From an uncultured archaeon (GTDB lineage: Archaea > Aenigmatarchaeota > Aenigmatarchaeia > QMZP01 > QMZT01), in NCBI GenBank assembly GCA_964346665.1, contig CAYFVC010000067.1:987-64986 (forward strand): a stretch of DNA of 64,000 nt, given 5' to 3'. Positions 658-44,235 of this stretch are shown piece after piece (the first letter of the stretch is position 1; the number at the start of each line of letters is the position of its first letter). The position numbers and the translations under genes are program-made. Under the pieces are notes generated by a model. The model saw only the letters and a program-made list of their open reading frames with translations. It was not told where the DNA came from and searched no databases.

Positions 658-1293
658 CTATTTCTTTTTATTTTTGGATTTCTCCTTTTTATCCTTTTCC
701 TTTTCCAAGTCCTCCGCTATCAGGGGCATGGATTTCATTATCCTGACCTGAACGCCTATTTTCCCTGGCTTCGTGTCAGCCTCATCGAATCCGTAGTCAA
801 CCAGCTCTTTCGCAGGCTGGCCGCAGTGTTTCAGATACCCATATGTGAATTTCCCTCTCCTCCCTTTCGAGCCTCCGAGCTTCCCGGAGATAATGATCTC
901 CGTTCCTATCGCCCCAGCATCCATCACCCTTTTCAACATTATGTTCCCGATCTTTTTGTAGTTGTACCCTCTTTTTAACGCTGATGTTATCTTTTTCGCA
1001 ACGATTTTTGCATCCAAGTCGGGGTTTTCGATTGATTTGACATCAACTTGAGGATTTTCGAGTTTGAATTTCTCCTTAAGACTGTCAGTCATCTCATTTA
1101 TCTTCCTTCCACCCGCGCCTATTATCCTTCCGGGTCTGTCTGTGTGTATTATGATCTTAACGCCCAAAGGCGTTCTTTCGAGCTCGATTTTCGAATAGCT
1201 TTCCTCAGGGAAATAACCCCTTATGAATTCCTCTATCTTTGTCTTCCTTATTGCGTAGTCCACGAAAAAGCTTTTTATCAACATCAAAATCAC
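658..1293 (-). CDS. rps3: 30S ribosomal protein S3 (uS3)
   Basis: It has a KH domain motif (GRIIGAGGRKINE), a uS3 C-terminal domain and a lysine-rich tail. It lies between rpl22 and rpl29. Confidence 0.9.
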   Translation of the reverse strand: MILMLIKSFFVDYAIRKTKIEEFIRGYFPEESYSKIELERTPLGVKIIIHTDRPGRIIGAGGRKINEMTDSLKEKFKLENPQVDVKSIENPDLDAKIVAKKITSALKRGYNYKKIGNIMLKRVMDAGAIGTEIIISGKLGGSKGRRGKFTYGYLKHCGQPAKELVDYGFDEADTKPGKIGVQVRIMKSMPLIAEDLEKEKDKKEKSKNKKK

Positions 1294-1673
1294 TTTTGCT
1301 GTAAAACAACCTGTATGTTCGTCATCTTCCTCCTTGTCCTCCTCATTTTCAACCTTCTGGGTCTCATGAAAGTAAAGCCCTTGTGAGCGGAAGCAAATAT
1401 CACCAACCTGCTCGTGTCCAAGCCCTTGAATTCCGCGTTCGCTTCCGCGGATTTTATAACATTCAATATTCCCTTACAAGAGTTCGTATAATACTTCCCC
1501 TCCAGGCTCCTTTTCTGATTAATCAGATCTTCCAAAAGTCTTTTGCCCTTTGTAAGATTCTTTCCGCTTATCATTCTGCAAACAACGGTTGAGCTCTTAG
1601 TGGATATTCTTAATGCTCTACCATACGCCATAGCTGACTTCTTCGGATTAAGGTTAAGCGCGTAGTTTGTCAT
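1290..1673 (-). CDS. rpl22: 50S ribosomal protein L22 (uL22)
   Basis: The 127-aa protein has the uL22 beta-hairpin region. Its position between rps19 and rps3 is conserved, and the ATGA-type overlap with rps3 suggests translational coupling. Confidence 0.85.
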   Translation of the reverse strand: MTNYALNLNPKKSAMAYGRALRISTKSSTVVCRMISGKNLTKGKRLLEDLINQKRSLEGKYYTNSCKGILNVIKSAEANAEFKGLDTSRLVIFASAHKGFTFMRPRRLKMRRTRRKMTNIQVVLQQK

Positions 1674-2742: not shown

Positions 2743-3060
2743 TTATATCATCCCCAATTTCGAAGCGATGTCAGCGGCTGAAAAATCCGGATGTATTTTT
2801 ACGAACGCCTTTTTTTGACCACGTGTCGTTATCTCCGTTCGCACCCATTCAACTTTCACTTCAAACTCCTTCTCAACAGCCCCCTTTATTTCATCCTTAT
2901 CCGCCTTTTTATCAACTATGAACACCAGTTTATTCTCGAGTTCAACCATGTTCATTGATTTTTCAGTTAAATGGGGATACACAAGGATATCCCATGCGTT
3001 TTTCCCACCTTTCACTTCTTCTTCAACGAGCTTGTCTTTACTTTCCTTTTTCTCTGCCAT
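2743..3060 (-). CDS. rpl23: 50S ribosomal protein L23 (uL23)
   Basis: The 105-aa ORF has a uL23 fold signature (VFIVDKKADKDEIKGAVEKEFEVKV). It lies between rpl4 and rpl2. Confidence 0.85.
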   Translation of the reverse strand: MAEKKESKDKLVEEEVKGGKNAWDILVYPHLTEKSMNMVELENKLVFIVDKKADKDEIKGAVEKEFEVKVEWVRTEITTRGQKKAFVKIHPDFSAADIASKLGMI

Positions 3061-3850
3061 TTAAATCCATCTCCTTTATAGCTGACTTCGTGAATATCGC
3101 GAATCTCCCCGGATGCGTTCCGGGCGCTAACAAACTCACGTCCAATTCCTTCACTAGGGAAACATCAATTCCAGGCACGTTCTCCAAAGCTCTACGAACG
3201 CCCTCGTCCTTTTCTATTACCACCAAAGGACCCCTCTTAGTTCGGTATCTCCTCCCCCTTACCTTCCCTTTACCTGACCTCACCTTCTTCTTTTCACATC
3301 TTTTCATTTCCTCTCCCAAGCCAAATTTCTCAAGTATTTTAATCACTTCTGAGGTCTTGTTGATTTTCTGGAACCCATCCTCGAGCACGATGGGGACGTG
3401 CTTCGCCTTCGAAATCCTATGACCCCTTTTCAGAACCATATCCTTGTCAAGGGTCGCAGCCAACGCGGATTTCAAGGCCTTCATTCGTTCCTTCTTGTTT
3501 ATTTTCAAAGTCCATTTCTTCCAGGACTTTGGGGGGTGCGCCTTCCTTCCTTTCACAGCTTGAGGAACAACCCTTGCGGTCAGATTGAGAAAACCATGAC
3601 CATGAATCCTTCTCATACGGGCGAGCTCCCTGTTCATCTGCGAGTCCCTTCGACTCCTTCTCCCGTGGTAATGAGCGGAGCTCCTGTGACCCGCTAAAGG
3701 ATCGCTTCCGTATACCTGCCTCAGTTTGCTGACCTCCGCAAGCACCGCCCTTTGTATGAGATCTTTTCGAACTTTTTCCATGAAAGCTTGGGGTAAGGAA
3801 ATCCTTCCCTTCTCCTTCCCGTTCAAATCGAATACAGGCAACGTATGCAT
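3038..3850 (-). CDS. rpl4: 50S ribosomal protein L4 (uL4)
   Basis: It shows uL4 (L1e-type archaeal) features. The start is probably the internal Met (MHTLPVFDLNG), so the tool ORF is trimmed at its 5' end. No rpl3 lies upstream. Confidence 0.85.
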   Translation of the reverse strand: MHTLPVFDLNGKEKGRISLPQAFMEKVRKDLIQRAVLAEVSKLRQVYGSDPLAGHRSSAHYHGRRSRRDSQMNRELARMRRIHGHGFLNLTARVVPQAVKGRKAHPPKSWKKWTLKINKKERMKALKSALAATLDKDMVLKRGHRISKAKHVPIVLEDGFQKINKTSEVIKILEKFGLGEEMKRCEKKKVRSGKGKVRGRRYRTKRGPLVVIEKDEGVRRALENVPGIDVSLVKELDVSLLAPGTHPGRFAIFTKSAIKEMDLNGREKGK

Positions 3851-22755: not shown

Positions 22756-22835
22756 GAACTTAAAGATAAAAACCCGAAATCATATTGAATAATATTAACC
22801 GAAACAGAACTACGTTCTGTTTCATTCGAAATCTT

Positions 22836-22947
22836 GCCTCGGTAGCTCAGTGGTAATTTCGTAGGAAGCAGATTACATCTGCTTCGATCGCTAGGGAGCG
22901 TTCGCTTGGTAAGCGAAAGGTCGCGAGTTCAATCCTCGCCCGAGGCT
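22836..22947 (+). tRNA. tRNA-Thr(GGU) with a ~37-nt intron in the D-loop (non-canonical position)
   Basis: The acceptor stem is 7 bp (gcctcgg/ccgaggc). The D-stem is gctc/gagc. The anticodon arm ttcgc-ttGGTaa-gcgaa is uninterrupted. The T-arm is gcgag-ttcaatc-ctcgc and the discriminator is t. About 37 extra nt lie between the D-stem halves and contain a perfect 9-bp hairpin (gaagcagat-tac-atctgcttc). Confidence 0.7.
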
Positions 22948-42775: not shown

Positions 42776-43072
42776 ATGAAAGCAGTGTTTTTCATCCCTG
42801 CGGAAAATTTTTCCAAAGTTAAAAACACCGTCTATGAGGACGATTTGGTGTCAAGGCAGACAATCAATTTCAGGGAAGCGCGGGCGCTAGGTTTCGAAAA
42901 GGACGGGTATTACCTCGAAATAGACGGCTCCGGCGAAGCTGTGAAGAAGACGAAAGAATTAATCGGGGACATGGGAAAGGAAGTTGATAAGAAGGAGAAA
43001 GAAGAGATTCTGAAAAAGATTTCAGAACAAGAGGAATCAGCTGCGCAGGGATTTGGCACAATTTTCGGATGA
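42776..43072 (+). CDS. Hypothetical protein
   Basis: The 98-aa ORF has an acidic C-terminus and no recognised motif. Confidence 0.3.
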   Translation: MKAVFFIPAENFSKVKNTVYEDDLVSRQTINFREARALGFEKDGYYLEIDGSGEAVKKTKELIGDMGKEVDKKEKEEILKKISEQEESAAQGFGTIFG

Positions 43073-43147
43073 CAACTTAGAATGAAAGTAAAGGTCATCA
43101 GCAGATATCTGTTGGCATAGACGAAGTCTATGTCTTTCGAAAGGTAT

Positions 43148-43385
43148 GCGTCGGTAGTCTAGTCTGGTGCTCGCCCCGCGAGAAGCGAATGGGCACTAGG
43201 ACACAGGCTTGCCAAATCGAAACCTCCAGCGGGTTTCGATGCATCCAGCAACCATAATGCAAAAAGCCTGTAACCCGGGTTCAAATCACATTTACGGGCT
43301 GGTAAAATACGTGAACATTTTTCGGCCAGCCGACTTTTGAGGAAGCCGGCTGCTCCCGTAAAAGGTGGCTATCCCGGCCGACGCA
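43148..43385 (+). tRNA. tRNA-Gly(GCC) interrupted by three introns (D-loop ~29 nt, canonical 37/38 ~50 nt, T-loop ~86 nt)
   Basis: The exons assemble a 73-nt cloverleaf. The acceptor gcgtcgg pairs with ccgacgc, and the discriminator is a. The D-stem is gtct/ggac, with the D-loop split by a 29-nt insert. The anticodon arm is caggc-ttGCCa[50 nt]a-gcctg. The T-stem ccggg/cccgg flanks ttcaaat plus an 86-nt insert. Each insert contains its own perfect hairpin. Confidence 0.65.
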
Positions 43386-43426: not shown

Positions 43427-43927
43427 ATGAAACTTTTCAAAAAGAAATCCGAGGAAATCAAGGAACTACAACCGGAAAAACTACCAAAACTAACAGAAGA
43501 GGAAAAGGAATTCGAACCTCCGGCCAAACTACCTGAAATAAAGAAAGTCCAACCACCTCCACCAAGGCCAGCGGTTTCTAGATCACCACCGATTTTCATA
43601 AAGGTTGACAAGTACAGTGATATCATAAAAAACATTCGGGATCTCAAATCACACATTCTCAACCTAAGGGATGCTCTCGATGTTCTCGATGATATGCAGA
43701 AAGAGATTATGAACGGGATAGACCTTGCACACAAAACCCTTGATGAGCTGAACATGATAATATCGAATCTGGATTCCTTTTTCATGAGACCTCAGGGAAT
43801 CGAACATCACATGGAAGAGGAAATACCAGAACCCGGAAGGATGAGTCCTGATGAGGTCGAGGGCTACATGACAGATGTCCAAACCCAGCTCCAGAAGTTG
43901 CGGTCTCAACTTAAGGCTATACAATAA
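43427..43927 (+). CDS. Hypothetical coiled-coil protein with Pro-rich linker
   Basis: The start is at MKLFKKK (43427). The tool ORF starts inside the tRNA gene and is considered over-extended. It has a PPPPRP linker followed by a coiled-coil C-terminal half. Confidence 0.4.
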   Translation: MKLFKKKSEEIKELQPEKLPKLTEEEKEFEPPAKLPEIKKVQPPPPRPAVSRSPPIFIKVDKYSDIIKNIRDLKSHILNLRDALDVLDDMQKEIMNGIDLAHKTLDELNMIISNLDSFFMRPQGIEHHMEEEIPEPGRMSPDEVEGYMTDVQTQLQKLRSQLKAIQ

Positions 43928-43962
43928 ATATAATAACCTTGTTTTTCATATATTTCTAATAT

Positions 43963-44194
43963 GCGGGGGTAGCCAAGAAACCCTTTTGCGCAAGTAAACG
44001 CACAAAAGCGTTTACGGAAAATACGCTGACGCAGGGGTTTGGCACTGGTCAAAGGCGATAGGCTCAAGACCTATTCACTTAGTGTGTTCCTGGGTTCGAA
44101 CACCGCTTTTTCAATAAAAGCGGTGGAGCAAAATGGAGCCAACGTCGCTCACATTGTTCGCTCCTGGCTTCCATCGGAATTCCCAGCCCCCGCA
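43963..44194 (+). tRNA. tRNA-Leu(CAA) with two non-canonical introns (D-loop ~65 nt, T-loop ~80 nt)
   Basis: The acceptor gcggggg pairs with cccccgc, and the discriminator is a. The D-stem gcc...ggc is separated by an over-long insert. The anticodon arm atagg-ctCAAga-cctat is intact. A 15-nt variable arm fits a class II Leu tRNA. The T-stem ctggg/cccag encloses ttcgaa plus an 80-nt insert that forms its own hairpins. Confidence 0.65.
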
Positions 44195-44235
44195 TGGCCA
44201 AAAAATTTTTAAATATAACATGTATAGGATAAATC

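Follow-up and report, generated by a model that had tools for sequence, protein, structure and literature searches.

A tRNA-Leu(CAA) gene predicted to be spliced twice, in the D-loop and the T-loop, in a Candidatus Aenigmarchaeota archaeon

Known interrupted tRNA genes and the present locus

Non-canonical and multiple introns of the bulge-helix-bulge (BHB) type are well documented in archaeal tRNA genes, including introns at site 59/60, relaxed splice motifs and shared intron sequences (PMC4090602; PMC4033280; PMC8450103; PMC3239211). The present work concerns positions 43963-44194 of a 64,000-nt stretch of contig CAYFVC010000067.1 from an uncultured archaeon (hereafter the window, meaning the whole stretch). 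This segment is, with a probability of about 0.88, a tRNA-Leu(CAA) gene that is functional and spliced twice, with one intron in the D-loop and one in the T-loop; it comes from a Candidatus Aenigmarchaeota (DPANN) archaeon. The mechanism, splicing by the endonuclease EndA and a ligase, would be an ordinary one, and the locus is in kind less exceptional than an earlier reading of the same DNA (the sequence-only reading) had implied. It is unusual in degree, that is, in the size and density of the introns, in their modular families and in the existence of relatives with four introns in a gene.

Multi-intron tRNA genes are known from the Thermoproteales (Sugahara 2008) and were discussed there in terms of a "large-scale intron transposition" (Fujishima 2010), as summarised in PMC4033280, PMC4090602 and PMC8450103. 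Like those genes, the locus studied here is co-linear, is interrupted more than once outside the canonical position, at 59/60 among other sites, and has relaxed hBH or HBh' motifs; in both cases similar introns are found across positions and tRNA species and are rapidly gained and lost between close relatives. Unlike the crenarchaeal Thermoproteales, the present host belongs to a DPANN lineage and has a mesophilic G+C content (43%). Furthermore, the non-canonical introns of Thermoproteales are mostly a few tens of nucleotides long, whereas those described here measure 68 and 80 nt and are built from recognisable modules. Site 15/16 is not among the intron positions given in PMC4090602. As for intron number, the window has 1.8 introns per tRNA gene, and genes with four introns in its relatives exceed the stated maximum of three per archaeal tRNA gene (PMC3239211; PMC4033280; PMC8450103).

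Among DPANN archaea, the precursor of tRNA-Cys(GCA) of ARMAN-2 (Candidatus Micrarchaeum) contains a 13-nt hBH intron at 59/60, in an organism with an epsilon2 EndA (PMC3239211). The T-loop intron of the window shares with it a DPANN host, the 59/60 site, the use of the T stem as outer helix, the 3-nt bulge and a 4-bp helix formed with the T-loop, but it is six times longer and has two hairpins; in ARMAN-2 tRNA genes, at most two adjacent T-loop introns have been reported. More generally, disrupted tRNA genes of DPANN and Asgard archaea have been inferred from incomplete tRNA sets, DPANN EndAs with an additional loop, L3, have been linked to more disruption, and further, as yet unidentified disrupted tRNA genes were explicitly predicted in genomes with L3-EndAs (PMC5829648). 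The tRNA-Leu locus is one such predicted disrupted gene; Aenigmarchaeota are not among the genomes of that study, which describes no gene structures of the present kind.

A similar arrangement exists outside the Archaea, in nuclear tRNA genes of the red alga Cyanidioschyzon merolae, where BHB-dependent intron removal was shown by reverse transcription PCR (PMC3728597). Common to these and to the genes considered here is that a single gene may be interrupted in its D-loop, its T-loop and at 37/38; the algal genes differ from the present locus in being eukaryotic, in having at most three introns, all short, and in the lack of reported intron families. Another structured intron of comparable size, that of euryarchaeal tRNA-Trp (about 100 nt), is excised, circularised and carries a C/D-box guide, unlike the two introns of tRNA-Leu in the window, which have neither C nor D boxes and match no Rfam family. 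A literature search that covered few subscription journals returned no account of such genes for Aenigmarchaeota and none of archaeal tRNA genes with four introns.

Gene structure, spliced product and conservation

Applied to the whole window, ARAGORN reported a single tRNA, tRNA-Thr, and a scan with Rfam at gathering thresholds found this same gene only. ARAGORN with its intron options gave no call on the unspliced tRNA-Leu region, and Rfam at E<=10 returned no tRNA, intron or small RNA (sRNA) family between 43100 and 44250, the two matches obtained (sX4 and an HCV element) being at chance level. Both inserts were deleted in silico over a grid of boundaries, and each of the 6,720 combinations was given to ARAGORN, which made a call in 1,752 of them; all inspected calls were tRNA-Leu(caa). 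With the boundaries AAG|TGG and TTCGAA|T the product, 84 nt long, is a class II tRNA-Leu(caa) that folds into a full cloverleaf, in which U8, A14, G15/C48, G18G19, U33, G37, the T-loop TTCGAAT, A73 and a long variable arm are present. The identity proposed by the sequence-only reading is thus recovered from the canonical product that insert removal yields.

Read through, the gene has the order GCGGGGG-TA-GCCAAG, 68-nt insert, TGGTCAAAGGCG-ATAGG-CTCAAGA-CCTAT-TCACTTAGTGTGTTC-CTGGG-TTCGAA, 80-nt insert, T-CCCAG-CCCCCGC-A, and the CCA end is not encoded (coordinates of this and all other features are given in Table 1). All the elements that had been described as intact are in place: the acceptor stem (GCGGGGG, 43963-69, with CCCCCGC, 44187-93, and the discriminator A73 at 44194), the anticodon arm ATAGG-CTCAAGA-CCTAT (44058-74, with the CAA anticodon at 44065-67), the 15-nt variable arm TCACTTAGTGTGTTC and the T stem CTGGG/CCCAG. 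The D-loop insert, previously put at about 65 nt, measures 68 nt and is closed by the helix AACCC/GGGTT, while the T-loop insert has the 80 nt attributed to it and starts with a 10-bp hairpin. A split or permuted tRNA gene was considered and is ruled out, because the three exons are co-linear on one strand within 232 nt. The putative TATA-like box, located by eye about 30 nt 5' of the mature end, overlaps the stop codon of the upstream open reading frame (ORF), and a similar box lies at the same distance in two related loci (L001 and L004; loci of related contigs are designated here by L numbers).

The upstream ORF (166 aa, 43427-43927) encodes the small coiled-coil protein that had been noticed between two intron-rich tRNA genes some 580 nt apart; the distance from the end of tRNA-Gly (43385) to the start of tRNA-Leu is 577 nt. 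This ORF has 34 homologues, and every named one comes from metagenome-assembled genomes (MAGs) of Candidatus Aenigmarchaeota (Aenigmatarchaeota). The DNA around eleven of them was compared, and a consensus mature tRNA was aligned in a splice-aware manner to each locus. Most loci have in common the gene order 98-aa ORF, tRNA-Gly, coiled-coil ORF, tRNA-Leu, EF-Tu-D2-like ORF and topoisomerase. In the group, tRNA-Leu(CAA) has introns at four sites, namely 15/16, about 30/31 in the anticodon stem, the variable arm and 59/60, which occur in all combinations among the orthologues, and never at 37/38.

These differences between relatives locate the junctions. The D-loop sequence GCCAAGTGGT is uninterrupted in L005, L010, L166 and L172, where the D-loop intron is absent, and TTCGAAT is uninterrupted in all orthologous loci except L006, which alone among them has a T-loop intron. 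Since the intron-less orthologues equal the predicted ligation products, the splice junctions of the window gene are fixed to the nucleotide, at 15/16 and 59/60, independently of any structural model, and the absence of an intron at the canonical site 37/38, also claimed beforehand, holds.

The twelve spliced orthologues are all 84 nt long and comprise ten distinct sequences, with an identical exon 1. Of their cloverleaf cells 99.6% are paired, compared with 31-53% when partners are slid, a value that the aligner may flatter in the variable arm, because its choice of exon bases favours agreement with the consensus, but that is unaffected in the anticodon stem and the T stem. Compensatory double changes are found at three pairs (27-43, 50-64 and 52-62), and none of 500 shuffles matched the observed covariation score or paired fraction. 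The maintenance of pairing together with compensatory changes in the spliced orthologues is a strong argument against a pseudogene. A dead tRNA gene, broken by two small mobile or repetitive insertions and giving no functional tRNA, is indeed barely credible here, even if the standard tRNA finders give no call and the inserts belong to families that are repeated at other sites, with one member outside any tRNA. The exons hardly vary, in contrast to the diverging introns and flanks, and their few changes are compensatory in stems; the inserts sit exactly at sites of BHB-like motifs, which covary with the host exon; the gene is interrupted at the same syntenic place, and always spliceable, in 12 of 12 genomes; and all five tRNA genes of the window, the initiator included, are interrupted and cannot all be dead.

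The failure of standard tools on these genes has a wider implication. Aenigmarchaeota MAGs more than 90% complete have been reported to hold as few as 17-25 tRNAs (PMC8407114). In the window, four of five tRNA genes escaped the finders, and some of the tRNAs "missing" from DPANN genomes may accordingly have been overlooked and not lost, as suspected in PMC5829648.

The anticodon-stem intron of the relatives, which the window gene lacks, presents a peculiarity of its own. Its 35-nt form, AATGGTCTTGAACCCTGATTCAAGATGATGTCGAT, is nearly invariant across distant relatives and holds CTGA and GATGATG; were the intron circularised, the former would have the form of a D box and the latter that of a C-box-like element.

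Splice motifs and predicted processing

The canonical archaeal BHB has a central helix of 4 bp between an outer and an inner helix; a 3-nt bulge on the 3' strand separates it from the outer helix and another, on the 5' strand, from the inner one. Cleavage occurs after the second nucleotide of each bulge; the strict form is written hBHBh' and the relaxed forms hBH or HBh'. Neither intron of the window gene has the strict form. In intron 1 the central 4-bp helix is formed by G10-A13 (43972-75) and UGGC (44040-43), the bulges are A14 G15|A on the 5' side and A C|U16 on the 3' side, and the inner helix pairs AACCC (43979-83) with GGGUU (44035-39) over 5-6 bp. The modelled motif is HBh'-like. The intron also folds internally into an 8-bp hairpin, GTAAACGC (43994-44001) with GCGTTTAC (44008-15). 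In intron 2 the T stem is the outer helix, the central helix pairs U54-G57 (44095-98) with CGGA (44175-78), and the bulges are A U|U60 on the 3' side and A58 A59|C on the 5' side, so the modelled motif is hBH-like. The earlier reading had been prepared to give way if the junctions could form no BHB-like motif, and both fold into one.

The motifs were examined across relatives on introns defined by exon alignment alone, nine at 15/16 (eight from tRNA-Leu and one from tRNA-Gly) and nine at 59/60 (two from tRNA-Leu and seven from tRNA-Gly). At 15/16 the central helix is formed in 36 of 36 pairs, against 5-17 in slid registers, and at least five of six inner-helix pairs are present in all eight tRNA-Leu introns. 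At 59/60 the values are 35 of 36 pairs against 6-21, with a T stem of five out of five pairs. The intron strand at 15/16 covaries with the host D-stem, in that GCCA of tRNA-Leu is matched by UGGC or UGGU and GUCU of tRNA-Gly by GGGC, while the intron strand at 59/60 varies among CGGA, UGAA, UGGA, UGAG and UGGG. The T-loop arrangement also recurs in many other tRNA genes of related contigs, as seen in a wider scan. Folding of the whole precursor gives a minimum free energy (MFE) of -91.8 kcal/mol, compared with -87.3 kcal/mol when both motifs are enforced, a cost of 4.5 kcal/mol; the T-loop motif is already present in the MFE structure. In intron 2 and its relatives, folded one sequence at a time, a perfect hairpin of 9-11 bp lies 1-2 nt past the 5' cut, and in our model it may stack on the central helix and so replace the inner helix.

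The following course of events would account for these features. The locus would be transcribed as a precursor of about 232 nt. In the D-loop, GCCA of the D-stem would pair with UGGC, an intron-borne mimic of its partner, placing the splice sites in 3-nt bulges 4 bp apart, and this motif would be backed by the intron-intron helix. In the T-loop, the T stem would act as outer helix next to the pairing of U54-G57 with CGGA, and the hairpin near the 5' cut could supply the inner helix by stacking. An EndA of the broad-specificity type would cut the four bulge sites, a ligase of the RtcB type would join the three exons into the 84-nt class II tRNA, and CCA would be added after ligation.

Several points weigh against this account. 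The outer helix of intron 1 is weak, with three of five pairs, two of them G-U, and the motif of intron 2 lacks a conventional inner helix. Moreover, neither an EndA nor an RtcB gene was detected within the 64 kb, a weak test made by tblastn with an approximate M. jannaschii EndA sequence, and the copy number of tRNA-Leu(CAA) is known for the window only. Finally, what can be read directly from the DNA is the structure of the gene with its exact junctions, folds compatible with a BHB, a product that is conserved and covaries, the presence/absence polymorphism of the introns and the sharing of their sequences; transcription, cleavage by EndA, ligation and the way in which introns spread are deduced. 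Because of the weak outer helix in the D-loop and the missing conventional inner helix in the T-loop, both introns need a tolerant enzyme. There are precedents for this in the DPANN archaea, since the 59/60 hBH intron of ARMAN-2 is cleaved in vitro by its own EndA (PMC3239211) and disrupted tRNA genes go along, in this group, with EndAs that carry an extra loop (PMC5829648). Such demanding substrates, a T-loop intron with a hairpin for an inner helix and a D-loop intron that mimics the partner of the D-stem, predict a broad-specificity endonuclease in Aenigmarchaeota.

The same geometry bears on a different idea, in which the inserts would splice themselves out in the manner of group I introns or stay in the RNA as expansion segments. 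Introns of group I have been found in archaea, and bacteria with small genomes have them in tRNA genes (PMC6125680; PMC13011429). With 68 and 80 nt, however, the inserts are far below the size of a group I core (P3-P9, at least 200 nt), they lie outside the anticodon loop, where such introns usually sit, they match no Rfam intron at the gathering threshold or at E<=10, and their junctions fit the BHB rule precisely; as segments retained in the D-loop and T-loop, they would be incompatible with an intact tRNA elbow. This idea is effectively refuted by size and BHB geometry.

Intron families and the other interrupted tRNA genes

A search of the window by an acceptor-stem and T-arm combination scan, followed by reading of the sequences, found five tRNA genes, all of them interrupted, with nine introns in total; ARAGORN and Rfam find only that for tRNA-Thr. 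The T-loop intron of tRNA-Ser(GGA) looks like a shortened relative of intron 2 of tRNA-Leu (CACC...GCGGTGAGAAAAT as against CACCGC...GCGGTGGAGCAAAAT). Among the relatives, L006 has four introns both in tRNA-Leu(CAA) and in tRNA-Gly(GCC) (1171-1437, with introns of 56, 15/16, 56 and 66 nt), and ARAGORN calls the spliced product in each case. By eye, the tRNA-Glu genes of L147 (minus strand, 425-759, 335 nt) and L152 (1919-2257, 339 nt) also appear to have four introns each.

Intron sequences are shared among these genes. Nucleotides 30-72 of intron 2, a 43-nt core, recur with 93% identity within the D-loop intron of the L001 tRNA-Leu gene, and nucleotides 5-33 match the T-loop intron of tRNA-Gly in the same locus. 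A metagenome scan with the 18-mer GGAGCYAACGTCGCTCAC from this core retrieved 34 loci, of which four (L143, L147, L151 and L152) have the extended module and the others are chance matches. In L143, L147 and L152 the module lies in T-loop introns of tRNA-Glu, while the L151 copy is outside any tRNA. Over its whole length, intron 2 reaches 88% identity with the tRNA-Glu T-loop intron of L143, compared with 62% for the T-loop intron of tRNA-Leu(CAA) in L006; the latter shows 91% identity to that of a Ser-like tRNA in L143, and the differences between these two concentrate at the 3' end, which must pair with the host T-loop. Intron 1 behaves similarly: the D-loop intron of another tRNA-Leu gene, in L143, has 88% identity to it, against 52-65% for the same-site introns of its orthologues. 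The introns are thus closer to each other across tRNA species and positions than at orthologous sites, as expected for transposed families. Folding of each sequence separately revealed one architecture in 24 elements, distributed over sites 15/16, 37/38 and 59/60 of Leu, Gly, Glu, Ser-like and possibly Pro tRNA genes, and composed of a hairpin 1 of the form NNNGCYUUUU-loop-AAAARGCNNN, a linker (N)AGCRAAAA and a second hairpin, H2, GGAGC...GCUUCC. The outer stem of hairpin 1 shows compensatory variants (CACCGC/GCGGTG, CACAGC/GCTGTG, CACGGC/GCCGTG, TAAGCC/GGCTTA, GAGC/GCTC and GACC/GGTC). Intron 1 of the window lacks the shared core. Two scans of viral contigs found no genuine intron module, with one chance match and the hairpin in none of the other 68, and a scan of genome contigs with the degenerate AAGCNGTGGAGCAARA gave more than 120 matches, mostly bacterial and due to chance, and one Aenigmatarchaeota contig.

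In the account that we favour, the introns of this spliced gene would be selfish passengers that tRNA-Leu does not need. Transposition or gene conversion would bring about their gain, loss and exchange among sites and tRNA genes, and the lineage would have an endonuclease tolerant of relaxed motifs. A further and tentative step, possible but not the outcome we would expect, is that the introns are lineage-specific structured BHB families that are still moving in Aenigmarchaeota between sites 15/16, 37/38 and 59/60, with the core as a module for spliceability or mobility or as a stable circular RNA. The moves would then span Leu, Gly, Glu, Ser-like and possibly Pro tRNA genes, with the L151 copy in an apparent mRNA leader; the core would comprise the U4/A4 hairpin at the 5' splice site, the AGCRAAAA linker and the GGAGC/GCUUCC hairpin, and certain repeats (see below) would be insertion footprints. 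The mechanism by which BHB introns are gained in archaea has been called unknown (PMC4090602). Relatives that differ intron by intron, together with near-identical introns across tRNA genes, offer material to test how such introns spread, and if the families are indeed still moving, a lineage whose four-intron genes are more than 70% intron sequence would be a natural system for the study of BHB intron gain.

Some of the same observations could be taken to mean that the introns are kept for a functional RNA, the core being released, probably as a circle, and acting as an sRNA or a protein-binding module, much like the C/D-box guide of euryarchaeal tRNA-Trp. One architecture in 24 elements at three positions of at least four tRNA species, the compensatory changes in the outer stem of hairpin 1 and the copy in a non-tRNA context 3' of a TATA-like box speak for such a role, which we nevertheless regard as unlikely: the two introns of tRNA-Leu have no C or D boxes and no Rfam match at E<=10, intron 1 is without the core, and each intron is absent from many orthologues and hence dispensable. 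Recent common descent of mobile copies explains the likeness equally well, and the hairpin also has a plausible structural part in the splice motif. An intron-encoded C/D-box sRNA was rejected as a candidate, with no UGAUGA-like box in either intron, CUGA in intron 1 only and no Rfam sRNA.

Another proposed benefit is protection. Randau and Soll reportedly put forward the hypothesis that tRNA introns shield the attachment sites of integrases, and here the introns would protect tRNA genes by disrupting the D- and T-arm attachment sites used by virus or plasmid integrases. The clustering of introns in the most conserved tRNA segments (D-loop and T-loop), the fact that five of five tRNA genes of the window are affected, and GACGCA tracts resembling the 3' end of tRNA-Gly, seen by eye to recur near these genes, are in keeping with it. 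Presence and absence among close relatives resembles neutral turnover instead, and no integrated element was identified next to tRNA-Leu, so that protection appears decidedly unlikely.

The module of L151 (1447-1520) is complete, with hairpin 1, AAGCGAAAAA and H2 with a 25-nt insert. A TATA-like box precedes it by about 25 nt, and it is closely followed by a GGAGGT of Shine-Dalgarno type and the start codon ATG of an ORF for a membrane protein, divergent from a gene that, judged by eye from its translation, encodes a uL4-like ribosomal protein. This copy might form the leader of an mRNA, be an independent sRNA or represent a BHB intron of an mRNA.

In family-1 introns the 3' arm of hairpin 1 is directly repeated just before the 3' splice helix (AAAAGGCTT...AAAAGGCTT or GCTGTG...GCTGTG), so that the repeats flank the linker and H2; the distal copy is absent from the T-loop intron of the window. 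The repeats could be a target-site duplication of an inserted element or provide alternative helices, a local hairpin as opposed to the BHB inner helix.

Table 1. Features of the tRNA-Leu(CAA) gene, of other tRNA genes in the window and of related loci
Feature	Position	Strand	Details
tRNA-Leu(CAA) gene	43963-44194	+	232 nt; three exons, two introns, none at 37/38
Exon 1 (tRNA nt 1-15)	43963-43977	+	Acceptor 5' strand GCGGGGG, U8 A9, D-stem 5' strand GCC, A13 A14 G15
Intron 1	43978-44045	+	68 nt, D-loop, between nt 15/16
Exon 2 (tRNA nt 16-59)	44046-44100	+	D-arm remainder to T-loop U54-A59
Intron 2	44101-44180	+	80 nt, T-loop, between nt 59/60
Intron 2, hairpin 1	44101-44125	+	10 bp, CACCGCTTTT-TCAAT-AAAAGCGGTG
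Intron 2, linker	44126-33	+	GAGCAAAA
Intron 2, hairpin H2	44134-40 / 44166-73	+	TGGAGCC / GGCTTCCA; loop holds 25-nt insert 44141-65
Exon 3 (tRNA nt 60-73)	44181-44194	+	U60, CCCAG, CCCCCGC, A73
Putative promoter	43924-43936	+	AT-rich TATA-like box ATAAATATAATAA; by eye
T5 run, plausible archaeal oligo-T terminator	44206-44210	+	12 nt 3' of gene; by eye
tRNA-Thr(GGU)	22836-22947	+	D-loop intron, ~41 nt
Initiator tRNA-Met	29049-28954	-	T-loop intron, 21 nt
tRNA-Gly(GCC)	43148-43385	+	Introns ~29 nt at 20/21, ~50 nt at 37/38, ~86 nt at 59/60
tRNA-Ser(GGA)	47493-47365	-	37/38 intron and 24-nt T-loop intron
Leu(CAA) introns, window			D-loop 15/16 68 nt; T-loop 59/60 80 nt; none at other two sites
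Leu(CAA) introns, L001			D-loop 93 nt; variable arm 31 nt
Leu(CAA) introns, L004			D-loop 64 nt
Leu(CAA) introns, L005			Anticodon stem 35 nt; variable arm 31 nt
Leu(CAA) introns, L006	2022-2331 (gene)		D-loop 91 nt; anticodon stem 35 nt; variable arm 31 nt; T-loop 69 nt; 310-nt gene
Leu(CAA) introns, L008			D-loop 66 nt; anticodon stem 35 nt
Leu(CAA) introns, L010			Anticodon stem 35 nt; variable arm 43 nt
Leu(CAA) introns, L011			D-loop 67 nt; anticodon stem 71 nt
Leu(CAA) introns, L166/L168			Anticodon stem 35 nt
Leu(CAA) introns, L169			D-loop 66 nt; anticodon stem 35 nt; variable arm 36 nt
Leu(CAA) introns, L172			Anticodon stem 35 nt; variable arm 40 nt
Leu(CAA) introns, L174			D-loop 93 nt
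35-nt anticodon-stem intron	L005 3109-3143; L006 2144-2178; L008 2137-2171; L010 2074-2108; L166 2130-2164; L169 2158-2192; L172 2086-2120		
Family-1 introns with 3'-arm repeat	L001 3057-3149; L004 3114-3177; L006 2037-2127 and 2249-2317; L008 2055-2120; L174 2059-2151		
Upstream hairpin and (T)TTCGAAA sites	Window 43119-43146, 22800-22835; L004 ~2270-2307, ~3020-3098; L008 ~1290-1351		

The window has a G+C content of 42.8%, and the neighbouring genes encode a topoisomerase I/III-type enzyme, a RadB/Rad51-like ATPase and a small EF-Tu-domain-2-like protein. By eye, a perfect hairpin followed by (T)TTCGAAA is found 4-8 nt upstream of the mature 5' end in many tRNA genes, as in GAAACAGAAC-TACG-TTCTGTTTC ATTCGAAATCTT|GCCTCGG, and tRNA-Leu of the window is without it. 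A unit consisting of the GACGCAGG/CACAGG hairpin and TTTCGAA also occurs inside some introns, in L172 (1358-1432), L143 and L045. Lastly, the final 16 nt of intron 1 of tRNA-Leu (GACGCAGGGGTTTGGCAC) match GCGCAGGGATTTGGCAC at 43040-43059 of the window in 15 of 16 positions (BLAST E=0.3, perhaps by chance), at the 3' end of the 98-aa ORF upstream of tRNA-Gly.

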